Assembly (NCBI GenBank): GCA_963766885.1
Contig: CAVYBO010000002.1
Location: 22,014-86,013, forward strand
Reading direction: 5' to 3'
Origin: an uncultured bacterium
Lineage (GTDB): Bacteria; Patescibacteriota; Minisyncoccia; Phycocordibacterales; CAIRYW01
Length of the DNA stretch: 64,000 nucleotides
The translations under genes and the position numbers were made by a program. Position 1 is the first letter of the stretch. Every line of letters begins with the position of its first letter. Of the stretch, positions 19,364 to 53,091 are shown one piece after another. The notes under the pieces were generated by a model. It searched no databases and was not told where the DNA came from. It saw only the letters and a list, made by a program, of their open reading frames with translations.

Positions 19364-19455
19364 TTATAAAAAATCCCATTAGGTTGCTTCAAAAAACCTT
19401 TGAAAAATATGGTTAGAAAAATCTATGACCCTACCGGGAATTGAACCCGGATTTA
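19364..19455. repeat. direct repeat copy B (abuts and overlaps the 3' half of tRNA-Glu)
   Basis: ttataaaaaatcccattaggttgcttcaaaaaacctttgaaaaatatggttagaaaaatctatgaccc followed by the intact tRNA. Confidence 0.5.
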
Positions 19456-19497
19456 AGCCTTGAGAAGGCTCCGTCCTAACCGTTAGACGATAGGGCC
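19426..19497 (-). tRNA. tRNA-Glu (anticodon CUC)
   Basis: Manual cloverleaf: acceptor GGCCCTA/TAGGGTC, D-stem GTCT/GGAC, anticodon stem GAGCC/GGCTT with loop TTCTCAA, T-arm CCGGG-TTCAATT-CCCGG, 72 nt, no encoded CCA. Confidence 0.85.
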
Positions 19498-19609
19498 AAG
19501 TCAAACAATTTTACACAAAATCAAAGAAAAATCTATTTTAGATGAAACTTTTTGGTATGTGATACGATATAAAAAAGAGGTCTTTTTATTAATTTAATTT
19601 TAAAAATAT

Positions 19610-33584: not shown

Positions 33585-33946
33585 TAATATTATGCAATAT
33601 ATATGCGTACGTTGTCAAATAGATATGTCAAAAATATGGCCTACAATAAGACTATATTTATCCACAGGCTTCAGTTTTTTTTCATTTTGTCATTGACTTT
33701 TCGGTTTAAATTTGATAGGATTGTAGATGACCAGTTAAGTGCTGGTCTTTTAATTTATTACGACTAGCGAGAGATGTCGCGAAAAAGCAGAATGTTTTTT
33801 CATGACAGCCGAGCGACGTCGTAGTAATGAAATTTTGTGCAACTATGTAGATTCCCCGCAAGGGGAATTCGGCTAAAGAGATAAGGACACATAGATTACA
33901 AACTAGGAAAAGGCTTATTATAGAAATCATAGCAGGGCTCAGTCTC

Positions 33947-34432
33947 TTGGCCTCAGGGCTCAAGCCTCAGACTGACGCCACAAACACGACAGCAAGCGTT
34001 GCACCTTCACAAATAGAAGTATCAATCTCAAATCAAACAACCGAAACAGCCAGTTCAACAGCGGCTTCATCATCTCCTGTAATGGAAGAAGATGAAGATC
34101 CTCTGCCGTCCAATAACGTCCAGGCTGAAGTGAACGAATACTTTAAAGATATTCCAGTGATGCAAGACATTGCATACTGCGAAAGTCGCGACAGACAGTT
34201 TGATGAACAGGGCTCAGTCTTTAGAGGAAAAGTAAATCACGATGATGTTGGTGTGATGCAAATCAATACCGATTATCATTTGGATAAAGCCGAAGCAATG
34301 GGTATAGACATATTTACGACAGAAGGAAATATGACATACGCCAGAGAATTGTTTGAAAAAGAGGGTACAGAGCCTTGGGATTCATCTTCTAAGTGTTGGA
34401 TACCAAGATCAAATCTTGTTGCAATGAAGTAA
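33947..34432 (+). CDS. lysozyme-like / lytic transglycosylase-like protein (TTG start, no signal peptide, S/T-rich N-terminus)
   Basis: IAYCESRDRQFDEQ...GVMQINTDYH matches the catalytic E-S ... G(L/V)MQ(I) signature of SLT/lysozyme-like folds. Confidence 0.45.
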   Translation: MASGLKPQTDATNTTASVAPSQIEVSISNQTTETASSTAASSSPVMEEDEDPLPSNNVQAEVNEYFKDIPVMQDIAYCESRDRQFDEQGSVFRGKVNHDDVGVMQINTDYHLDKAEAMGIDIFTTEGNMTYARELFEKEGTEPWDSSSKCWIPRSNLVAMK

Positions 34433-34451
34433 TATTAGAGAGAAATAATCA

Positions 34452-34490
34452 AATGACAAAACCCCGCCTTTCGGCGGGGTTTTGTCATTT
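34452..34490 (+). terminator. strong intrinsic terminator
   Basis: aatgacaaaaccccgcc-tttc-ggcggggttttgtcatt (17-bp stem) then T-rich. Confidence 0.7.
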
Positions 34491-34643
34491 GACAGAGTTA
34501 CGAAGCATTGAGCTGAAACAGGCTGTTTTAAGTAATTTAATTAGGGGAGTGCAGTTTTATATTTAAGGCTAAAGGCTCAATTATAATCACGTCGCACAAT
34601 ATATCTTTGGTAAAGTTAGATGAAATTAGCCAAAGCAACGAGT

Positions 34644-34892
34644 TTATTTACTTGTCACACTGATGCCTGCGGCCGTTGTACTTGATGTTTTGGTATCTCC
34701 GATAACGGTTGATCTGGAGGCTGTCTCCTTTTCTGTCATTTTAATTCCTTTTGATAAAGCCATATTTGCTGTAATAACTGATTGGCTGTAAATTTCAGAA
34801 AGTGTGCTTATTTTTCTATTTGCTTCAAAACCTGTCCATACTCCTATTGCGAATATTAATAAAATCGCTAGCAGTGAATTTATCTTGTTCAT
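34644..34892 (-). CDS. small secreted/membrane hypothetical protein
   Basis: 82 aa with N-terminal signal/TM (MNKINSLLAILLIFAIGVWTG). Confidence 0.35.
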   Translation of the reverse strand: MNKINSLLAILLIFAIGVWTGFEANRKISTLSEIYSQSVITANMALSKGIKMTEKETASRSTVIGDTKTSSTTAAGISVTSK

Positions 34893-34946
34893 AATTTTTC
34901 TTGAAATAATGCTTTTAATTTAGTGATTTTTCACGACGATGAAATT

Positions 34947-35192
34947 TTATTTTGTTTTTAACGTATTCAAATATTGCTGCGCTTTTGGTAAAAAGGATTG
35001 GATGTAGCCTATACATAGCATAATCACTTGCCACAAAAGCGAAAATATTTGTTTGACTATACTCCAGAGTTCCTGAACAACCTGGCTATGGATAATGTCG
35101 TTAAAACTGATATTAAAGCCGTATTTAAGGATAACTAGCGCAATGATGATTAAAATGATCAGCTGGATTATTCCTTTTTGTTTATTATGCAT
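34947..35192 (-). CDS. small membrane hypothetical protein
   Basis: 81 aa, two hydrophobic helices. Confidence 0.3.
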   Translation of the reverse strand: MHNKQKGIIQLIILIIIALVILKYGFNISFNDIIHSQVVQELWSIVKQIFSLLWQVIMLCIGYIQSFLPKAQQYLNTLKTK

Positions 35193-35217
35193 AAAAGTTT
35201 CCCATTAATTATACAGG

Positions 35218-43572: not shown

Positions 43573-44268
43573 TTACATACTTAAGGCGGGTTCGCTGCTC
43601 TGAATTACATTTTCCGGAATTGTAAAGACAACCATACTTATAAGTATTCCAATAAAAACAAGCGTCATTCCGATGATGATATTTATCTGATTGTTAGAAA
43701 ACCCAAAAAGCGCCGCTATGCCGTCCAAGATTCCGTTTGCACAAAGCATGTACATTCGTTTTTTTAATGGGATTTCTTTTAGGAGGTGGGCCACTCTTCC
43801 AAAAAGCCACGCCCAGTACATTCCATACACAAATCCTGAGCCCGAAAGCAACACAGACGTCACAGGATTGAAATTCCAAATTACTCCAACCGTATGCACT
43901 ATCGGGTTTGCCAGGTTTGCAATCTGAAAGCCTACGGCTATTATAGCGATGATAAATGTTAGCATGTCAAAAAAAAGCAAATGTTTTTTGAAAAACTTAT
44001 CTGTTACCAATATTTGGACTCGAAAGCACGAGACTATGATTCCAAAGACACTTATATTTGAAAGCACATTCCCCCATGCCGCTACGCGCAAACCCATTCC
44101 AGAGAGAATTGGAACTGAATCAAAAAAACACATAAAAAAAGTAAACAAGAAAATAGTACTGTAGTAAAAAATAAAATCGTTATCGTTCTTTTTGTGCAAA
44201 TGCAAAAAAAATAAAAACATATAGAAAGAAACCAGACTGCAAAAGAAATAAATGTAAACCGATATCAT
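43573..44268 (-). CDS. polytopic membrane hypothetical protein
   Basis: 231 aa, about 7 TM helices. Confidence 0.4.
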   Translation of the reverse strand: MISVYIYFFCSLVSFYMFLFFLHLHKKNDNDFIFYYSTIFLFTFFMCFFDSVPILSGMGLRVAAWGNVLSNISVFGIIVSCFRVQILVTDKFFKKHLLFFDMLTFIIAIIAVGFQIANLANPIVHTVGVIWNFNPVTSVLLSGSGFVYGMYWAWLFGRVAHLLKEIPLKKRMYMLCANGILDGIAALFGFSNNQINIIIGMTLVFIGILISMVVFTIPENVIQSSEPALSM

Positions 44269-44278
44269 TACTTTTAAA

Positions 44279-45952
44279 TTATAAGCTTTTTGCGAAATCT
44301 TTCACAGTGCCTCCGACCTTTGGGTTATTGTCTTTGAGACAGAGCTCAATTATAAAGGTTGATCCTTTGCCTGCTCCTTCGGATTCTGCCCATATTTTTC
44401 CTCCAGGATGCGCTTCTATTATGTTTTTGGCCACAAAAAGACCAAGTCCAGTACCCATTATGTTGGTTTTTGACGCATCAGGTGCGCGTGAGAATTTTTC
44501 AAAAAGCTTTGGCATCACTTCCTTAGGGATGCCTATACCAGTATCTTGAACATAAATTCTGCATTTCAGGCCATCAATTTTTTCTAAGTGGATGGTAAGA
44601 CCGCCGTTTTTAGTATACTTGGTTGAATTGTCTATAAGATTTGAAATAACTTCCTTTATTTTTCCTTTATCAGCATTTACTAAAAAAGTGTCTGTAGGAA
44701 TTTTGTAATCAAGGGTAAGTCCTGCAAATTTGACGTTTGGAGCAAGTTCTTTGACTACATCATTAACTAGATCCTTCAAATCAAAATCTTGAAAATCGTA
44801 TCGCATCCTTCCCTGCTCGATTCTTGAAACATTCAAATAATCTCCGACAATAATAACAAGTGATTGCGTCGAATCGAACATAATTCTTACAGCTTCTTTG
44901 ATGCCGTCGCTTGCGGGGCCATAATCACCTTCCAGTATGAGTGAAGCGTATCCTTTAATAGCCGCAAGAGGGCCTCGTAGTTGGTGTGTTGCGAATGATA
45001 TAAATTCAGTTTTTTGCTGGTCTAGCTCTTTGAGGCGGTTATTTGCTGATTCAAGATCTCTTGCTAGCAGCTCTATCTTCTCTCTCGTTTGAACCTCTTT
45101 GAGCACTGTTTTAACAAGCAGAATGCTTATGATAAGAATAAGAATAAAAACACTGATTCTTAGAATTATTTCTTCTATTGATGTTGAGTACAAAATTTCA
45201 AGAAAGGAAACAATTGATAGAGTAAATGTAAGCAATGCAGTTCCTGTAACTTTTATATTGAATAATTTGTATCGGATAATCGTAAAAGAAGTAAAAGCTA
45301 TAAAAGGGAAAATAAATAACGCACCGAAAGGAATCAAAGAATTCATATCAAAAAGAGATGGTAAAAGAAAATTAAAAGTTCCAAGAAGAAAAAAAGTTAT
45401 AAGCAGCCCAATAAATATTACAGTAAACTGTTTCTTTTCCTCCTTCTCAGCTTTTTTGGTTTTTTTATACAGAATGTAAAAAGCGGCAACAATATTAAAA
45501 ACAGTAACTATTAGGAATAATAATATCGCAGGACCCTTTGATACGGTGGAAACTTCTCCCGGAGACGCCAGAAATGTTATCTTATCGAAAACAAGAGGAG
45601 TTAGCGTCAGTAGCGAAGTTATTATCACAAGAGGGAAAAGGATAAATTTGAATTTTTTTGAAAAAGTTTTTTCTTCATCTGGAAAAACATACATTAATTC
45701 CAAAAGAGAAAATGCGTGCCATGTAGCAAAAAATATAACCAAACGAAGGCTTAGTAGAATATAAAAAGGCGTAGTGAATTTATAGTTTAGATAATTTACA
45801 ATACCCCAGCAAATTGATATGACTGAAAAAAATACGAATGAGCGATTAGTGATGCTTTTTGGATTACTGAAAAAAACAGTAAAGCCAAGAATTGCGATAC
45901 CAGCTATCGTAATTCCTACCGAAAACAAATCTAGGTTTGATAGTATGTCCAT
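44279..45952 (-). CDS. sensor histidine kinase with about 8-TM N-terminal domain (no cognate response regulator adjacent)
   Basis: HisKA H-box ATHQLRGPL, HATPase N/G boxes (LIDNSTKYT, DTGIGI, GTGLGL). Confidence 0.8.
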   Translation of the reverse strand: MDILSNLDLFSVGITIAGIAILGFTVFFSNPKSITNRSFVFFSVISICWGIVNYLNYKFTTPFYILLSLRLVIFFATWHAFSLLELMYVFPDEEKTFSKKFKFILFPLVIITSLLTLTPLVFDKITFLASPGEVSTVSKGPAILLFLIVTVFNIVAAFYILYKKTKKAEKEEKKQFTVIFIGLLITFFLLGTFNFLLPSLFDMNSLIPFGALFIFPFIAFTSFTIIRYKLFNIKVTGTALLTFTLSIVSFLEILYSTSIEEIILRISVFILILIISILLVKTVLKEVQTREKIELLARDLESANNRLKELDQQKTEFISFATHQLRGPLAAIKGYASLILEGDYGPASDGIKEAVRIMFDSTQSLVIIVGDYLNVSRIEQGRMRYDFQDFDLKDLVNDVVKELAPNVKFAGLTLDYKIPTDTFLVNADKGKIKEVISNLIDNSTKYTKNGGLTIHLEKIDGLKCRIYVQDTGIGIPKEVMPKLFEKFSRAPDASKTNIMGTGLGLFVAKNIIEAHPGGKIWAESEGAGKGSTFIIELCLKDNNPKVGGTVKDFAKSL

Positions 45953-45955
45953 AAA

Positions 45956-47014
45956 CTACTGTAAATAAATTATTTTAGGCTCTAGCCTAAGTGCTCGTGA
46001 TGACGGTTCGTCGCTGAATCCTAATCTGAATAATGCTGGCACAGCCTTATTCTTAACGCCAAATGTTTGCAAGATACTTTCGTAAGCGTCTTTAATTATT
46101 TTTTGATGTTCCGTAGAAAATATTTTCTCGTTACCTTCGTGGATGTTTTTTACTAGGTAAAGCACACCTGTGCAAGGATGGACGCTGATTCCCATTTTTG
46201 TAGCGTTGAGCCACACTTGCTCCATCGCTCTCCCGGCGTTCACGAAATCTTTATCTGATGAACCACTCATACTAATAATTGCTAAAGCGCCTGAAGCAGA
46301 ATATTTTTCAGCATTTTCTTTGACTATTGTATGAGATATCTTTGCAAGACGGTTCAGTAAAGTCAGAATAGTCCAGTTTCTTAATAATTTTACACCTTTT
46401 AATTGATGTGGTAAAAATTCAAGCGTTTTTATATAAAACCCGCCGGCTTTTTTTTGGTCTTCACTATTCCACAAAATATGATCATAAAAGAATTGATGAA
46501 GTTCTTTGTTTTCAAATATTATCTGTTCATTCACGGCTAGGGCTGCGCCCAATGTTTTCATTCTTTCTTGATCGTCTATTATATTGAGTTCCCCGAACCC
46601 GCTATCTTTTGCGACATTCACCAATATATTTTTTTGCTCATCAGAAAGCTTTTGATTTGCATGACTTTTTCTGTTGGTGCAGCGCGCTCCAAGATATTCA
46701 TATAGTGGATCTTTACCAGCCTCAGATTTTTTAAGCGTAATGATAGAAACAAGATTCGGCTCTTCCTTTTTTGGAAAAATATCAACATCTATGCTGTAGC
46801 CATAATTAGCGGCACTGATTAGAATGTTTTCAATGACTGCGCCGTGGGATACATAAGAACCTTTCTGCTTGAAGTTGTATATGGACTTGTCTGACTCTGG
46901 AATATTATAGATACTTATCTTATTTCCTGTCACCACAAATTTCCAAGGCTGGCAGTTCTCTCCCGAAGGAGCAAGTGTGCCATCATAAATTATGTGTTCA
47001 ATATCCTGTTGCAT
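45956..47014 (-). CDS. tandem nitroreductase-like (SagB/Acg-type) FMN oxidoreductase-fold protein
   Basis: 352 aa; APSGENCQPWKF N-terminal nitroreductase signature; two nitroreductase-like halves; start overlaps the stop of the upstream E1-like gene. Confidence 0.6.
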   Translation of the reverse strand: MQQDIEHIIYDGTLAPSGENCQPWKFVVTGNKISIYNIPESDKSIYNFKQKGSYVSHGAVIENILISAANYGYSIDVDIFPKKEEPNLVSIITLKKSEAGKDPLYEYLGARCTNRKSHANQKLSDEQKNILVNVAKDSGFGELNIIDDQERMKTLGAALAVNEQIIFENKELHQFFYDHILWNSEDQKKAGGFYIKTLEFLPHQLKGVKLLRNWTILTLLNRLAKISHTIVKENAEKYSASGALAIISMSGSSDKDFVNAGRAMEQVWLNATKMGISVHPCTGVLYLVKNIHEGNEKIFSTEHQKIIKDAYESILQTFGVKNKAVPALFRLGFSDEPSSRALRLEPKIIYLQ

Positions 47015-48189
47015 TACAAATTAAAAATCTTTTTAAAGGATTCTGATATTTTTTCTCGTTTGAGGGTTTCCTCTGGGCTGGCATAGCTCGGTATTAGTTT
47101 TTCATCAAGTGAAATAAGCGAGCGGTTCATTTCGAGTTCCTGGCCGTTTAAGATTTTGCGTACGCAATAAGCTACGGCTGCGCCGTTTATCATAGCTGCT
47201 CCGCCAAGCTGTGGCCAGGAAACTATTGTTTTCCCCATTTCAAGCAAAGATTGCTGCATTTTCTCTGTCACGTTTTCCGGCCCAACGTGTTTGGTGATCA
47301 TTCTGCCAATGCCGAATTTATCGAGTTTTGACAGCATTTCGTAAGACACTTCGCCCATTCGGCCGTGGAAAAACGGAGTATTTGGATCAAGATCGTATCG
47401 TTCCACATCAACCACGGCGTTATCTCCGTTATCTGCTGCCATGACCACTGGAAGCCTGTTTTTTTTTGCCTGTTCTCTTATAAGATATTTGACGGCAAGA
47501 TTGTCCAATTCGTCAATAACAATATCCAATCCCTCAAAAAATCTTTCAATGTTTTCTTTATTTAGCCCTTCTGGAAATAATTCTATTTCCGCATACGGAT
47601 TGATCTCATAGATTCTTTTTGCTGCCATTTCAACTTTAAGCATTCCTAAATTGTCTACGCCCATAAGTATTCTGTTTGTATTGGAAAGAGCCAAACGATC
47701 TAAATCCGCAAGTTTCAGATGCTTTGCTCCGCCTTGAAGAACAATGGCAAAAGCGACACTTGACCCAACGCTTAACCCGCCAATGCCTACTGTCGAATTG
47801 TAGAATTTGTCCTGTTCCTTTTCGCTTATTAAATTTTTGTTTCTTGCTGTTCGAACTTTGTAGAAATCCTCTTCTGGCAGAATATGCGCTAATGTTGAGC
47901 TCCAAGGAAAGTAAACCCAGTGGCCTTGCTGCCAAATCGGCTTCTCGCTTTGCAGTCTCTGATAGTATTTTTCAAATTCATCTTTAAAATCTGGACTATA
48001 AACCCTGCCTGGATTTTTCACGCCGTACAATTCAAGCTCTTGTTCTTTGTAATCATCCGAAATATGTTTGATGTCTTCTTTGTCAAACATCTCTTCAAGT
48101 TTTTTTTGGTCATCAATCTTTGACAAATCAAAAAAGAAAGGTTTGATCTGGCAGGCTGCTTGGTTCGTTAAATGTTTTTCTATACTCAT
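47014..48189 (-). CDS. E1-like ThiF/MoeB-family adenylyltransferase with a about 130-aa N-terminal extension
   Basis: VGIGGLSVGSSVAFAIVLQGGAKHLKLADLDRLALSNTNR Rossmann/ThiF motif; no CxxC zinc motifs. Confidence 0.65.
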   Translation of the reverse strand: MSIEKHLTNQAACQIKPFFFDLSKIDDQKKLEEMFDKEDIKHISDDYKEQELELYGVKNPGRVYSPDFKDEFEKYYQRLQSEKPIWQQGHWVYFPWSSTLAHILPEEDFYKVRTARNKNLISEKEQDKFYNSTVGIGGLSVGSSVAFAIVLQGGAKHLKLADLDRLALSNTNRILMGVDNLGMLKVEMAAKRIYEINPYAEIELFPEGLNKENIERFFEGLDIVIDELDNLAVKYLIREQAKKNRLPVVMAADNGDNAVVDVERYDLDPNTPFFHGRMGEVSYEMLSKLDKFGIGRMITKHVGPENVTEKMQQSLLEMGKTIVSWPQLGGAAMINGAAVAYCVRKILNGQELEMNRSLISLDEKLIPSYASPEETLKREKISESFKKIFNL

Positions 48190-48191
48190 AT

Positions 48192-49283
48192 TTATTTTGA
48201 TTGAAAATCTGAAATTGTTTTAACTACTTTATTATAATCTTTTTTGGACGGTATGTTTATCCTGATACAATCTTTAAAAAGACCGTTACTATGAGGATAG
48301 GCCGAGACGTCATTAACTAAAATTCCTTTTAAATTTAGGTATTTAATGAATTTTTTCTGGTTTTTTATTTTAGCGATAATGAAATTAGTATCGGTCTTAT
48401 AGCAGAAAATGTTTTCCTCTTTAAGAAAAGCTACGAATTTTGCTTTCCTAGTCAAAGTAGATGCGAGTTCTTTTTTGAAATGACCGGCATTTTTAAGCGC
48501 TACAATACCAGCATACACAGCAAAATGATTCACAGCCCACGGCAGACGCAGTTTTAAAAGTTCTTTGATTACGGACGGATGAGCTATGACATAGCCAAGC
48601 CGAAGACCAGCCAAGCCGAAAGATTTGGAAAATGTTCTCAAAATAATTAAGTTGCTATATTTTGAAATCAAATCAACAGCTGTTATGCCGCTAAATTCCA
48701 TATATGCCTCGTCGATAATTACAGGAATTTTATATTCGTAGCATTTTTTAACAAGTGCCGTCATTTGATTATGCGGAATCGATGATCCCAAAGGATTGTT
48801 GGGGTTGCACAAAAGCAACCCTTTTGTTTTTGAGGTGATAGCACTCAGGGTTTTTTCAAAAGGAAAAACGAATAAGTCGTTGTTTGTTGTGTACGCAATA
48901 ATCTCTGATTCTGCCCCGATAAGCTTTAAAATCGAAAAATATACAAAAAAAGTCGGTGATGGAGCCACAACATGATCACCTTCGTTAAAAAATAAATTAA
49001 GGAGCATTTGAATGGCGTGATCAGAGCCGCTGGTGATAGATATGTTTTCTTTTTTTATCTGTGAATATTTTGCAAGAGCAGAGTTGAGCTCTTCGTACTC
49101 GGGATAAGCGGTAACAGTGAAGGCATCGAATTTTTTAAGCGCGGAAAGAATGGTTTTTGTCAAAGAGCCGTAACCTTCGTTTAAATCAAGCCGAATAAAT
49201 GATTTTCTTCCAGTGGGAGGCTTCCAGGATGAAGAATCTGTGACGTGCTTTCTAATTAGCCTTTCGAGGTCTTGTTTTTGCAT
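48192..49283 (-). CDS. class I/II PLP-dependent aminotransferase (HisC-like)
   Basis: NPNNPLG, IIDEAY, FSKSFGLAGLRLGY (PLP Lys). Confidence 0.75.
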   Translation of the reverse strand: MQKQDLERLIRKHVTDSSSWKPPTGRKSFIRLDLNEGYGSLTKTILSALKKFDAFTVTAYPEYEELNSALAKYSQIKKENISITSGSDHAIQMLLNLFFNEGDHVVAPSPTFFVYFSILKLIGAESEIIAYTTNNDLFVFPFEKTLSAITSKTKGLLLCNPNNPLGSSIPHNQMTALVKKCYEYKIPVIIDEAYMEFSGITAVDLISKYSNLIILRTFSKSFGLAGLRLGYVIAHPSVIKELLKLRLPWAVNHFAVYAGIVALKNAGHFKKELASTLTRKAKFVAFLKEENIFCYKTDTNFIIAKIKNQKKFIKYLNLKGILVNDVSAYPHSNGLFKDCIRINIPSKKDYNKVVKTISDFQSK

Positions 49284-50834
49284 CTAATTATTTTTGACCC
49301 ATTTTTGTTTTATGCCAGTCTGAAAATGGGTCGGATGTCCGTGCGGCCAGAAAATAATATGAGGCTCAACTTTGCCTGGCATCATATTTGCATTGTTCTT
49401 GTGTTCTGCGCTTTTTTCTATCAAACTCGCTGAAACCAGTTTTCTAACTTCCTGGCTTAGCCAATCAGACTCTGTTATTCCTGGTTTTAGTTCGATATTT
49501 AATTCAAGATACTCATCCTGTTTTTTATCATTTTTCGTGTACATTGTGAATTTGCCTGTTATATATTTTTCGAGGCCGTGATTTTGAAGTCCTGCTTTGA
49601 CATATTCTGGATATATAATAGCTCCATAGAGTTTTACAGACAGATCTGTTCGTTCATATATATAAACGAAAGGCAGTTCAGAAACAGTGTCTTTGATACC
49701 AGCTTTTTCGATTTCTTCCCAAATATCGATTTTCTCTTCTTTGAACATTTGTTCGATATCCTTGAAGTCGTAAACACCTCCATTATCGCCGATTTCGTAG
49801 CGTACAAGCGGAAGCACGTTGTTGCCGCTGCAATAAATCTTTCGGTTTACGCTTTCAAAGTTAATGAACTGAGGTATATATTGGCATAATGTTGGTATGC
49901 GAGTTGCTTCAGTAAAGATCTTCCTATACAACTTTTTATTTTTAAGGGCTAGGCGGCGAATAAGTATACTAATAGGAGTTTCTTCAGCCATTGTGCCCAA
50001 GTCGGCAGAGCCGTATATATTTATTGTATCTCTGTATGGATCTTTCATACCAGTTTTTCTCATAATATAGTCCCGGAATTCTTCAGAAAACGATTCTGCT
50101 GCGAATACCATTTTTAAATTAAAATTCTTCCAATTAATACCGTTTTCTTTTCCTTCATCAATGACATCCTTCATAAACGGCGGATAACCGCACAAAATAA
50201 CCTGATCATATTTAGGGCCGATGTTTTTTAAAGATTCAAAAATTTCTTTTTTGTTAACCCCAGGAGTCAAAATTGTCATTGGGTATCCTCTGCCGGAAAT
50301 TGATTTGAATGCTTGGTATGTAATAACCCCTCCGATCCATACGCCCATGCCAAAACAGACTAAAACAAGAGTTGATTTTTTGGGGTCAATTTTCGCGTTT
50401 CGGAAAAACATTTGGTGGTATATAGATGATTGAGCATCCAGAAGTCCATTTCTTGGAAAATAAAATGGCCTGCCGGTTGAACCAGACGTCGAAGTTAATA
50501 CTAGAGATTGTTCGGTTAATGATCCTGGCATGCAAAGTTTCTCCCAAGGATAGCTTCGGAGATAATTATCTTTGTTTACAGGAGGGATATTCTCAAACTC
50601 TTCAAGAGTTTTTATCTTATTTTGGTTGATTTGGGCTTTCTTTAAAAAATCTTTATAAGCCTTCACATTGTCAGCGCATATATGAAAAAGTTCAAGCAAA
50701 TTTTTCGTTCTTTCTTTTTTCCAAAAATCGCTTTTTTTGCTATAAATATAATCTAATCGCTTTCCAGCAATTTGTTTAGGGAGCTTGCTTTCTCTCTCAA
50801 ACAGTTCCGCAATATTTTGTTTCTCCTTGGCCAT
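49284..50834 (-). CDS. PaaK/F390-synthetase-like adenylate-forming enzyme (ANL superfamily)
   Basis: 516 aa; LTSTSGSTGRPF AMP-binding P-loop-like motif, YGSADLG. Confidence 0.6.
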   Translation of the reverse strand: MAKEKQNIAELFERESKLPKQIAGKRLDYIYSKKSDFWKKERTKNLLELFHICADNVKAYKDFLKKAQINQNKIKTLEEFENIPPVNKDNYLRSYPWEKLCMPGSLTEQSLVLTSTSGSTGRPFYFPRNGLLDAQSSIYHQMFFRNAKIDPKKSTLVLVCFGMGVWIGGVITYQAFKSISGRGYPMTILTPGVNKKEIFESLKNIGPKYDQVILCGYPPFMKDVIDEGKENGINWKNFNLKMVFAAESFSEEFRDYIMRKTGMKDPYRDTINIYGSADLGTMAEETPISILIRRLALKNKKLYRKIFTEATRIPTLCQYIPQFINFESVNRKIYCSGNNVLPLVRYEIGDNGGVYDFKDIEQMFKEEKIDIWEEIEKAGIKDTVSELPFVYIYERTDLSVKLYGAIIYPEYVKAGLQNHGLEKYITGKFTMYTKNDKKQDEYLELNIELKPGITESDWLSQEVRKLVSASLIEKSAEHKNNANMMPGKVEPHIIFWPHGHPTHFQTGIKQKWVKNN

Positions 50835-50896
50835 AATGAATTACTAATTACTTGACTGAAATATAATTATATCACACCAGAAAACATTTTTTGGCT

Positions 50897-51286
50897 CTAA
50901 ATTTTTATTATTTTTTGCATTTCCTCGAGTTCCGATTCTGTTGTTATTTTGCCTCCCTTGGGATTTTTTAATTCTTTGTCATTGTTTATTGGAACCAAAT
51001 GTATGTGTGCGTGTGGGACAGCAAAACCCTCAACGATCAGCCCAATTCTTTTGGCCCCAGTCACCTTTTGTAATTTTGGAGCGATTTTTTTAGCAGTCAA
51101 AAATAATTCTTGGTACCCATCATCAGAAATATCAAAGACATTATCAATGTGATTTTTTGGAATAAGAAGCGTGTGCCCAGGATTTATTGGATGAATATCA
51201 AGGAAAGCCAGGTGAGTTTCATCTTCCCAAACTTTGTGACTTGGTAATTCTTCTTTTACAATTTTACAAAAAATGCAATCATCCAT
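50897..51286 (-). CDS. HIT-family (Hint-like) nucleotide hydrolase
   Basis: 129 aa; CIFCKI..., HAHIHLVP histidine triad. Confidence 0.85.
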   Translation of the reverse strand: MDDCIFCKIVKEELPSHKVWEDETHLAFLDIHPINPGHTLLIPKNHIDNVFDISDDGYQELFLTAKKIAPKLQKVTGAKRIGLIVEGFAVPHAHIHLVPINNDKELKNPKGGKITTESELEEMQKIIKI

Positions 51287-51300
51287 TACATTATTATAGC

Positions 51301-53091
51301 TTAATTATTTTCTTTGGAGTCGTCAGCAAACTGTATGTTATAAAGTTTTTTGTAAGTTGGGCTTTTTTCTAAAAGCTCCTCGTGCTTGCCTGTGGCTTCA
51401 ATCTGACTGTCTTTAAAGACAACAATCATATCAGCATGCAGCACCGTAGAGAGTCTGTGAGCAATAATAATTGAAGTTCGGTCTTTAATTAGAGCATCTG
51501 TAGCTTTGCTAATTAATTTTTCGCTCTCACTGTCCAAATGGCTTGTAGCTTCGTCCAAAATAAGGATCCTTGGATCGCGAAGTACGGCCCGCGCAATGCC
51601 AACTCTTTGGCGCTCGCCGCCAGAAAGCTTGATACCTCGCTCGCCCACAACTGTGTCGTAACCATTTTCTAGCTTTTGGATAAAGCCATCGGCAAGTGCA
51701 GTTTTGGCGGCGTTTTCGATTTCCATTTGATTTGTATTTTCTCTACCGTAGGCTATATTTTCGGAAACAGTTCTTGAAAACAAATCTACTTCTTGCGGCA
51801 CCACAGCCATTTGTTCACGTAAACTTTTTTGCGTTACGTCGCGGATATCTTTTTCATCAATAATAATTTGTCCTTTTTGCGGATCGTATGATCGCATTAG
51901 CATATTTATAAATGTTGTTTTGCCGCTGCCCGATCTTCCAACCAAAGCTACGGTTTTTCCAGCCGGAATTACAAGATTTATACTTTTGAGTGCCCAATCC
52001 TTATTTTCATTATTTACTCCGTGATATGAAAAAGAAACGTTTTTAAATTCAATTTGCTTTTGAAGATACGGAAGGATTTCAGCCTCAGCTTTATCCGTAA
52101 CATGAACCTCTTCATCCAAAACGGCAAATAATCTTTCTACTCGGGTGGCATTGCGCCGCATTCTTGGAAAAATTATCGAAAGCTGGGAGAGCGGCTGATA
52201 TGCCATATTTTGAAGCGTAATAAAAAGCACAAATTGTCCGATTGAGGCTTGTCCAACAAGGACAAACCAGGAGCTCAAAATAAGCACAATCACTCTGCCA
52301 GCTGTTGCAATGGCTGTTTGGGTGTTTTCTACCACTCCCCACAGCCTCTCGGCGCTATACTGAATTTCTCGTGCTTTAGCCATAAGAACATGTTCGTTCT
52401 CCGTTTCGGTTTCTTCCTGGGAGAATTTTTTGACAGTCAGCACATTTCCAGCAACGTCGTAGAGCTCTTTTGAAATCATTTCAAAAACATCGTTTGACTC
52501 CTGTTCGATTTTGTAAATTTTGTCGGAAATTCTTTTGGTGCTCAAAAAATAAATTGGAAAAGGAATAAGCACAGCAATTGCAATCCAAACATTTTCATAC
52601 GTTAATGCGACGAATGTGCCGATGAAAATTATTAAAGACGGCAAAAGCATCTGGCCGATTATGTCATAGAGAATTGAGTAGGCGGAGGTCGCACCCCTTT
52701 CAATTCGTCCGATAATTTGTCCACTTGAAGATTGATGATGGAATAAAGCATGAAGATCAAGATATTTTTCAAATGTTTCATTTCGTAATCGATCTTCTGT
52801 TTTTGTCACTAGTTTGAATAGGTGATAATTGTAGCTTGATTGAAAAATACTAGAAACAAGCGTTGCAAACAAAATTCCAATTGCAGCATAAACTAAGGTT
52901 AACCAAGGTACAGCGCCACCGATTTTTAAATAATTAGTCATCGCATCAATCAAGTCTTTTGAAATAAAAGGAACTACAAGGCTTGCTCCTTGAGATACGG
53001 TAATAAGAAAAATCAAAAAGATAACGGTCTTTTTGCGATCTTTAAGCAATGACAATATTCTTCTTATTGTTCCCTGCGGTTTCTGATCCAT
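51301..53091 (-). CDS. ABC exporter, fused permease/ATPase (MsbA-like)
   Basis: 596 aa; 6 TM, Walker A GRSGSGKTT, signature LSGGERQRVGIARA, Walker B ILILDEATS. Confidence 0.85.
   Translation of the reverse strand: MDQKPQGTIRRILSLLKDRKKTVIFLIFLITVSQGASLVVPFISKDLIDAMTNYLKIGGAVPWLTLVYAAIGILFATLVSSIFQSSYNYHLFKLVTKTEDRLRNETFEKYLDLHALFHHQSSSGQIIGRIERGATSAYSILYDIIGQMLLPSLIIFIGTFVALTYENVWIAIAVLIPFPIYFLSTKRISDKIYKIEQESNDVFEMISKELYDVAGNVLTVKKFSQEETETENEHVLMAKAREIQYSAERLWGVVENTQTAIATAGRVIVLILSSWFVLVGQASIGQFVLFITLQNMAYQPLSQLSIIFPRMRRNATRVERLFAVLDEEVHVTDKAEAEILPYLQKQIEFKNVSFSYHGVNNENKDWALKSINLVIPAGKTVALVGRSGSGKTTFINMLMRSYDPQKGQIIIDEKDIRDVTQKSLREQMAVVPQEVDLFSRTVSENIAYGRENTNQMEIENAAKTALADGFIQKLENGYDTVVGERGIKLSGGERQRVGIARAVLRDPRILILDEATSHLDSESEKLISKATDALIKDRTSIIIAHRLSTVLHADMIVVFKDSQIEATGKHEELLEKSPTYKKLYNIQFADDSKENN

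Follow-up and report, generated by a model that had tools for sequence, protein, structure and literature searches.

A row of closely packed minus-strand genes in the DNA of an uncultured, Parcubacteria-type member of the Patescibacteria raises the question whether it encodes a biosynthetic system and, if so, of which kind and with which members. The window, i.e. the whole stretch of DNA that was analysed, is 64,000 nucleotides (nt) long (GenBank contig CAVYBO010000002.1, positions 22,014 to 86,013 of the forward strand). A reading made from its letters (hereafter the sequence-only reading) had proposed six of its genes, from an ATP-binding cassette (ABC) transporter to a nitroreductase-like protein, as a candidate small-molecule or peptide modification system. 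The comparison of loci reported here defines a different unit of five genes, namely a PaaK-type ligase, an aminotransferase, a ThiF-like cyclase, an oxidase and a seven-transmembrane (7TM) histidine kinase (44279-50834, minus strand). The cyclase and the oxidase appear to be a split version of the oxazolone synthetase OxzB / TrzS (Rv1355c) / TyzB + TyzC, and we consider it somewhat more probable than the contrary that the module is a variant of the oxazolone pathway, with a ligase-made N-acyl amino acid and a kinase linked to the product. The genes concerned are the following.

44279..45952, minus strand: 7TM sensor histidine kinase (HisKA_7TM, HisKA and HATPase_c in Pfam), outside the stretch covered by the sequence-only reading
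45956..47014, minus strand: nitroreductase-like oxidase, 352 amino acids (aa), a tandem nitroreductase-fold flavin-dependent oxidase (FDO)
47014..48189, minus strand: ThiF/E1-like ATP-dependent cyclase, 391 aa
48192..49283, minus strand: HisC-like class I/II pyridoxal phosphate aminotransferase, 363 aa
49284..50834, minus strand: PaaK-type adenylate-forming ligase, 516 aa, of a distinct family that has no Pfam model
50897..51286, minus strand: HIT (Hint-type) protein, 129 aa (Pfam HIT, 7e-20)
51301..53091, minus strand: MsbA-like ABC half-transporter, 596 aa (ABC_membrane 23-300, ABC_tran 368-517), with no peptidase domain

Identity of the cyclase and oxidase pair

The ThiF-like protein (Pfam ThiF PF00899, 7e-26) matches the NCBIfam model NF005901, «Rv1355c family protein», with an E-value of 1.9e-99 and 333.9 bits over model positions 5-349 of 722, and the oxidase matches the same model with an E-value of 1.7e-59 and 201.8 bits over positions 375-713; the cutoff for the whole family is 476 bits, and the two halves found in the window were scored singly (333.9 + 201.8). 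The oxidase contains two Pfam Nitroreductase stretches, is matched by the model of the Acg family of flavin mononucleotide (FMN) oxidoreductases (NF047509, 1.9e-34), and has Acg (2YMV) as its best sequence match in the PDB. An exhaustive search of 1.84 billion representatives returned 971 relatives of the ThiF-like protein at E<1e-30, including stand-alone forms (about 360-400 aa) and forms in which ThiF and nitroreductase domains are fused (about 700-780 aa). The ThiF-like protein is 35-51% identical to the fused homologues over residues 14-365, N-terminal extension included; several of these homologues exceed the curated Rv1355c cutoff, and the concatenated cyclase and oxidase of the window are collinear with them in alignment.

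The chemistry of this family has been established in characterised members. TrzS performs the ATP-dependent cyclisation and O2-dependent desaturation of N-acyl-tryptophan to give an N-acyl tryptazolone (PMC12856293), TyzB and TyzC perform the equivalent cyclisation and desaturation as separate proteins (PMC10404671), and OxzB of Pseudoalteromonas rubra is the founding member (bioRxiv 10.1101/2020.06.11.147165; review PMC12596934). Because the two halves match NF005901 and the chemistry of the family is settled in the literature, the pair of the window is read as a split oxazolone synthetase homologue. The cyclase would then correspond to TyzB and to the N-terminal half of TrzS/OxzB, and the oxidase to TyzC and to the C-terminal half, a C-alpha/C-beta desaturase being the proposed function of the latter. 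The sequence-only reading had already regarded the E1-like and nitroreductase-like proteins as a functional pair, and this view stands, as they correspond to two halves of one family in which fusions exist.

The catalytic motifs of the cyclase are intact: GIGGLSVG (GxGxxG), LADLD...SNTNR (LADxD...SNxNR) and IDELDN show no variation among 14 homologues and are kept in the fusions, the invariant residues of the last motif being D226, E227, D229 and N230. The Asp that matches D217 of TrzS, whose mutation D217A abolishes cyclisation (PMC12856293), is present, the equivalence being established by motif position and without direct alignment to the M. smegmatis protein. In the oxidase, N20, Q22 and W24 (APS..N.QPW), the G-R of NAGRAMEQ and other positions are invariant across eight aligned fused homologues.

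By sequence, the closest solved relative of the cyclase is the cyclodehydratase TcdA. The structural model of the cyclase is of moderate confidence (pLDDT 72); the alpha/beta domain at its N-terminus (residues 13-115) is modelled with confidence. The top structural neighbour of the model is AclA (PDB 9egb), a protein of Tenacibaculum discolor whose structure «in complex with substrate» was released in 2025; no paper on it was found in the literature searched.

Gene spacing and conservation of the module in Patescibacteria

The open reading frame (ORF) list of the window contains the six genes of the sequence-only reading exactly at the positions that it gave, all co-oriented on the minus strand and, as it stated, separated by gaps of no more than 63 bp: the distances from the ABC gene to the oxidase gene are 14, 62, 0, 2 and -1 nt. 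The nucleotide that it reported as shared by the E1-like stop and the nitroreductase-like start was likewise found (...TTG TAATG CAA...). The same tight packing extends upstream into DnaK-DnaJ (gaps of 9 and 11) and downstream into the histidine kinase, a membrane protein and tryptophanyl-tRNA synthetase (TrpRS) (gaps of 3, 10 and 67), and the region from about 35.2 to 64 kb is a single co-oriented minus-strand run (about 29 kb). As about 29 kb of the strand is packed alike, tight co-orientation carries no information, and an operon inferred from spacing was rejected on this ground. Promoter and terminator scans of the region gave sites at the chance level expected from shuffled sequence and delimited no transcription unit. 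The boundary drawn around six genes is thus arbitrary, and only comparative evidence can define a system.

For this comparison, 80 Patescibacteria loci were taken from species-representative genomes (Nomura-, Taylor-, Kaiser-, Adlerbacteria and similar) and were scored using the proteins of the window together with de novo clustering of all ORFs; in neighbour counts with a denominator below 80, the denominator is the number of loci with enough flank to show the neighbour. In 67/70 loci the ligase gene precedes the ThiF-like gene on the same strand, directly so in 61. The oxidase lies downstream of the ThiF-like gene in 55/71 loci (adjacent in 40), and upstream of the ligase in several others. 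The 7TM kinase follows the oxidase on the same strand in 43/47 loci, directly in 28 and after a single intervening gene in 10. Beyond the block the loci share few related genes, and the internal order is shuffled. The conserved block therefore comprises the PaaK-like ligase, the ThiF-like cyclase, the oxidase and the 7TM histidine kinase, and it is completed in the window by the HisC-like aminotransferase, which adjoins the ligase or the ThiF-like gene in 8/80 loci. In two Patescibacteria loci the cyclase and the oxidase are fused, with the same gene context kept:

L082: GrpE-DnaK-DnaJ-x-lyase-ligase-fusion-7TM kinase
L084: lyase-ligase-fusion-methyltransferase-kinase

According to one rival explanation there is no system at all, only a polycistron of unrelated genes in which the E1-like protein has a housekeeping MoeB/ThiF sulfur-carrier role. 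The co-orientation of the entire 29-kb strand with tiny gaps is in keeping with it, since spacing alone proves nothing. It is nevertheless given hardly any credence: the block is kept in 80 loci in spite of variable flanks and shuffled internal order, fusions of the core genes exist, and the MoeB/ThiF models score about 47-77 bits against cutoffs of 152-647, to be compared with 334 bits for Rv1355c. The absence of co-localised homologues, together with a housekeeping role for the pair, had been named by the sequence-only reading as what would speak for an unrelated polycistron; co-localisation in 80 loci contradicts this, and the proposal of a small-molecule rather than a housekeeping system is upheld by the low MoeB/ThiF scores and by a cluster that holds no small ubiquitin-like gene.

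Membership of the six genes had to be revised. The aminotransferase and the ligase are retained, and the HIT and ABC proteins are not, because homologues occur near the module in only 2/80 loci (HIT) and 4/80 loci (ABC, with varying position and strand); the HIT protein is probably outside the system, and the ABC exporter is unsupported as a member. Conversely, the conserved downstream 7TM kinase had been left out of the six-gene set. The HIT gene was observed directly upstream in two loci that are not closely related, the window and L063 (6818-7120; ThiF-like protein 61% identical), and its count of 2/80 is slightly above a rough chance estimate of about 0.2 expected in 80 loci. A proofreading role of the HIT protein on acyl-adenylates is conceivable, if weakly supported.

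The presence of E1-like, nitroreductase-fold, HIT and ABC proteins had also suggested an analogy with ribosomally synthesised and post-translationally modified peptides (RiPPs), either of the type of thiazole/oxazole-modified microcins (TOMMs) or of the microcin C type. The likeness lies in this superficial domain composition only. No match at E<=0.01 was obtained in NCBIfam to SagB (TIGR03605), ocin_ThiF_like (TIGR03693) or MccB models, and among the fold matches of the cyclase MccB ranks 26th or lower. The sequence-only reading had recommended a search for precursor-peptide ORFs, and none fits the gaps, of which the largest is 62 nt; there is no free-standing small ORF. As HIT and ABC are not conserved partners and the ABC protein has no peptidase domain, the analogies with TOMM (SagB/C) maturases and with microcin C (MccB) both fall, and a RiPP-type system is highly improbable. 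Membership of the pair in the TOMM, MccB or MoeB/ThiF families was rejected in the absence of model support in NCBIfam.

Two kinds of additional neighbours were observed. A protein of about 305 aa is encoded next to the kinase gene in 13 loci, mostly between oxidase and kinase (e.g. L002 17464-18375, L003 5363-6286). It has a GAGG motif like that of S-adenosylmethionine (SAM) methyltransferases and weak Methyltransf matches, with no significant Pfam match, and a UbiE-type methyltransferase fills the corresponding place in L084 (5378-6136). This protein was considered as a possible acyltransferase, an assignment rejected on the basis of the SAM-methyltransferase-like motif and matches, and it is probably a tailoring step. 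In L042 (729-2222), L043, L044 and L062 the ThiF-like gene or the ligase is closely preceded by an alanine racemase gene, and in all of them except L044 a small RNHCP zinc-ribbon gene comes after the racemase; these racemase neighbours hint at D-amino acids as a possible input to the pathway in some lineages.

The PaaK-type ligase and the variable deamination slot

The ligase has no Pfam match and shows weak NCBIfam matches to PaaK and FlxY (PaaK 1e-10); against PaaK TIGR02155 it scores 41 bits, the equivalog cutoff being 646. Its AlphaFold2 model (pLDDT 83.7) has PaaK1/PaaK2 and BT_0428 as best PDB folds (E about 3e-20), then ClxA, and the adenylation motifs TSGSTGxP, YGSA, YxIGD and ERxD and the C-terminal Lys are invariant in 22 homologues. 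Judged by its fold and motifs, the ligase accordingly belongs to the PaaK branch of adenylate-forming enzymes without being PaaK itself. The domain labels of the sequence-only reading all hold in Pfam/NCBIfam, that of the PaaK-like ligase only by means of these weak matches and the modelled fold.

The aminotransferase (Pfam PF00155, Aminotran_1_2, 8e-52) scores 2e-75 and 254 bits with hisC TIGR01141, below the cutoff of 276.55. The slot adjacent to the ligase, which it occupies in the window, is filled by four families, the other three being as follows.

Glu/Leu/Phe/Val-type (ELFV) dehydrogenase: 19 loci, closest to ScyB (tryptophan dehydrogenase), 1.3e-85
Aromatic amino-acid ammonia-lyase: 14 loci, closest to FlxA (flexirubin tyrosine ammonia-lyase), 2.6e-186
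Class IV branched-chain aminotransferase: 4 loci

The FlxA and ScyB scores of these enzymes are all below the family cutoffs. The four families share the removal of the alpha-amino group from an amino acid, which leaves a carboxylic acid. The ligase family falls into two groups at about 42% identity. In the first group 13 of the 15 members adjoin an ammonia-lyase, to be compared with none of the 52 members of the second, which includes the ligase of the window and holds all the aminotransferase and dehydrogenase partners. A ligase that used what its neighbour makes, an enoic acid in one group and a 2-oxo acid in the other, would be expected to co-vary in this way. The 14 ammonia-lyases linked to the module (e.g. 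L010 6943-8496) have T-S-G at the triad that forms the methylidene-imidazolone (MIO) group, not the usual A-S-G. They carry Ser-His (or Gly-His) at what we take to be the selectivity switch of histidine, tyrosine and phenylalanine ammonia-lyases (HAL/TAL/PAL), and their best score is still with FlxA.

In known oxazolone loci, the position held here by the PaaK-type ligase is occupied by an acyltransferase. ORF clustering revealed no conserved family of FeeM/acyl-homoserine-lactone-synthase-like N-acyltransferases (OxzA/TyzA/TrzA type) in the 80 loci. The small partner proteins of fusions outside the candidate phyla radiation (CPR), which have no Pfam match, were used as queries in six-frame phmmer/hmmsearch searches and matched nothing in the window or the 80 loci, authentic OxzA/TyzA not being among the queries. 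In NatL2 (PMC7204872) and ClxA (PMC12519233), both PaaK-type enzymes, the acceptor of the acyl-adenylate is an O or N nucleophile instead of coenzyme A (CoA). The Pfam-less ligase family is a candidate CoA-independent N-acyl amino acid synthase.

Link to the 7TM histidine kinase

The N-terminal 7TM domain is the sole sensory module of the kinase according to Pfam, which fits a lipophilic ligand. In L082 and L084, too, a kinase gene is found downstream of the fused synthase. Receiver-only response regulators lie near the module in 20 loci; neither a response regulator nor other accessory genes were found in the window studied here. We propose a functional tie between the kinase and the module: the simplest possibilities are that the two form a synthase-receptor pair, the kinase sensing the product, or that the kinase regulates the production. 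The papers on oxazolones note that these compounds resemble acyl-homoserine lactones and are labile in water, and that trzAS adjoins genes for cyclic di-GMP (c-di-GMP) (PMC12856293; bioRxiv 10.1101/2020.06.11.147165); they are sensitive to acid as well (PMC12856293).

A comparable link was found in Bacteroidota (Algoriphagus-like), where L085 (6001-12142), L089, L090 and L091 share one layout: a divergent receiver-only regulator, an Rv1355c-family ThiF::oxidase fusion, a no-Pfam protein of about 235 aa, a 7TMR-DISM kinase and a hybrid response-regulator/kinase. Homology between the HisKA_7TM domain of Patescibacteria and the 7TMR-DISM domain of Bacteroidota was rejected (hhalign probability 9%). 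As the two 7TM domains are not detectably homologous, the link in Bacteroidota is considered as analogous, not inherited.

These data also bear on a more conservative explanation, in which the core does make an oxazolone (azlactone), the ligase is an ordinary aryl-acid CoA ligase, an unlinked acyltransferase forms the amide, the kinase is a mere neighbour, and the product is antimicrobial, stress-protective or membrane-associated. The best structural matches of the ligase, PaaK1/2 and BT_0428, are CoA ligases, and the published oxazolone pathways all use acyl-CoA acyltransferases (PMC12856293, PMC10404671); the same papers leave the physiological role of oxazolones unresolved and mention antimicrobial N-acyl tyrosine derivatives. 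This explanation is nonetheless judged unlikely, since the 80 loci show no conserved acyltransferase candidate close to the module, the kinase keeps its place in spite of varying flanks, and a second phylum has an analogous link.

Comparison with known systems

A close likeness is with TrzAS (M. tuberculosis/M. smegmatis, Rv1356c-Rv1355c), which combines a ThiF-like cyclase with an Acg-like FDO and whose family model is matched end to end by the two halves of the window. Signalling genes are nearby in both cases, for c-di-GMP turnover in M. tuberculosis and for a histidine kinase in the window. The two differ in that TrzS is one fused polypeptide, whereas the window has two genes with a 1-nt overlap, at an identity of about 35-40%, and in that TrzA is an acyl-CoA:Trp N-acyltransferase, its position being taken in the window by the PaaK-type ligase and the aminotransferase. 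TyzACB (M. tuberculosis Rv2336-Rv2338c, N-acyl tyrazolone; PMC10404671) has separate cyclase and oxidase genes in an operon, as in the window. It differs by its FeeM-like acyltransferase TyzA, which uses fatty acyl-CoA, and by having no ligase, deaminating enzyme or kinase partner; in addition, NCBIfam places the proteins of the window in the Rv1355c branch. OxzAB of Pseudoalteromonas rubra likewise applies a ThiF and nitroreductase pair to N-acyl aromatic amino acids, and the authors discuss a signalling role on account of the lability of the products in water (bioRxiv 10.1101/2020.06.11.147165; PMC12596934), whereas the enzyme is a fused di-domain protein with the N-acyltransferase OxzA immediately upstream, and is found in Proteobacteria.

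The ligase and the slot enzymes have parallels elsewhere. NatL2/BomJ and ClxA of benzoxazole pathways (PMC7204872, PMC9400959, PMC12519233) share the PaaK fold, ClxA being among the top structural matches of the ligase of the window; they differ by their aminohydroxybenzoate substrates, the lack of a ThiF/oxidase partner and an identity of about 15% to that ligase. The pathways of FlxA/FlxY (flexirubin) and ScyB (scytonemin) resemble the slot in that an aromatic amino acid is deaminated and the acid is then activated or condensed, with the difference that these enzymes relate to the slot enzymes of other loci, the window carrying the aminotransferase option.

The sequence-only reading had not recognised the combination as a described pathway. 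This holds for the gene combination, which is absent from the literature searched, and not for the core chemistry, which was described in 2021-2025. The core is thus known, as the oxazolone synthetase enzyme system. Nothing relevant on this module in Patescibacteria or CPR was found in the literature searched, and what appears to be new there is the combination in Patescibacteria of a ligase instead of an acyltransferase, an interchangeable deaminating enzyme and a conserved 7TM kinase.

Proposed pathway and points that weigh against it

The homology of the core pair, its intact catalytic motifs, the conserved clustering, the fusions and the co-variation of ligase and deaminating enzyme are direct observations; the chemistry and signalling of the module, as we infer them, would proceed as follows. 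The aminotransferase would convert an amino acid, probably aromatic or heteroaromatic, into a 2-oxo acid such as an arylpyruvate, and the ligase would activate the amino-acid-derived acid as acyl-AMP; with no need for CoA, the amino group of another amino acid would then capture this intermediate, in the manner of the PaaK-type enzymes NatL2 and ClxA. The cyclase would then adenylate the carboxylate of this N-acyl amino acid, so that the amide oxygen could close the 5(4H)-oxazolone ring, and the FMN oxidase would desaturate the C-alpha/C-beta bond to give a conjugated 4-ylidene-oxazolone with an exocyclic double bond. The 7TM kinase may sense this lipophilic, labile product or control its production.

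Several points weigh against this pathway. Identity to fusions of the characterised type is only about 35-40%, and the Patescibacteria members are known from sequence alone. R540 and Q651 are FMN-site residues that matter in TrzS (PMC12856293), and R536 of P0317, a candidate equivalent of a TrzS FMN-site residue, is Gln in the oxidase of the window. The oxidase is missing from the fetched flank in about a quarter of the loci. The ligase product may be a CoA thioester rather than an amide, and an unlinked acyltransferase may be involved. The adjacency of the kinase could partly be inherited synteny within one phylum, and the four Bacteroidota loci represent one syntenic lineage, with a 7TM domain that is not detectably homologous (hhalign 9%). 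The characterised enzymes of the family use O2, an acceptor that the lifestyle of this bacterium may not provide. Finally, the cyclase is 53-81% identical across loci, above DnaJ and TrpRS, which is unusual for an enzyme of secondary metabolism.

This high conservation therefore leaves some room for a macromolecular substrate or partner. The cyclase would in that case act on a modified tRNA base, like TcdA, or on a protein or peptide C-terminus, its neighbours making or attaching the modifying group. Median identities across loci are 66% for the cyclase, 38% for the oxidase, 51% for the ligase, 55% for DnaJ and 52% for TrpRS, so that the cyclase exceeds DnaJ and TrpRS of the same loci, and its confident N-terminal domain (13-115) has no assigned role. 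TcdA/CsdL (tRNA t6A to ct6A), in which the tRNA t6A dehydratase TcdA is the closest solved relative by sequence, also uses E1-like carboxylate adenylation for intramolecular ring closure. It differs by its tRNA substrate and the lack of an oxidase partner, and it aligns only over the Rossmann core (residues 129-256), whereas homology to the small-molecule-acting Rv1355c/TrzS family is full-length, the N-terminal domain included. The obligatory oxidase partner, the co-varying amino-acid enzymes and the ligase fit small-molecule assembly, and the cluster has no room for a small ORF or a carrier-protein gene (gaps <=62 nt). A macromolecular target is on these grounds improbable, and the oxazolone variant with ligase and kinase is retained; the gene neighbours suggest an undescribed small-molecule, possibly signalling, pathway.

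Other features of the window

The GC skew changes from positive (up to about 34 kb) to negative (beyond about 36 kb), with a cumulative skew maximum near 32-36 kb. The gene strand switches at the skew peak, from plus (up to 34432) to minus (from 35218), and the convergent arrangement together with the skew peak near 33600-35200 resembles a replication terminus. A 231-aa multi-pass membrane protein is encoded at 43573-44268 (minus strand), 10 nt after the histidine kinase; it has no Pfam/NCBIfam match and no counterpart in the other 80 loci. A tRNA-Glu(CTC) gene at 19425-19498 (minus strand) is the sole tRNA gene and the sole Rfam match in the 64 kb.

Significance

The discovery of oxazolone synthetases dates only from 2021, and the literature calls their physiological role unresolved (PMC12856293). 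The pair is present in several lineages of ultra-small, biosynthetically poor Patescibacteria, with a different substrate-making route, and it points to a small-molecule trait that these reduced-genome symbionts evidently cannot lose. The link to a kinase offers a testable idea of the purpose of oxazolones, that of a signal with its cognate receptor. In its strongest form, which we hold to be rather unlikely, a self-contained signalling circuit, widespread in Patescibacteria, would join a CoA-independent oxazolone pathway to the adjacent 7TM kinase as receptor, either by binding or by covalent acylation by the electrophile. Such a circuit, if real, would give these episymbionts their first autoinducer-like or host-sensing system, and a receptor would be assigned to an oxazolone for the first time.

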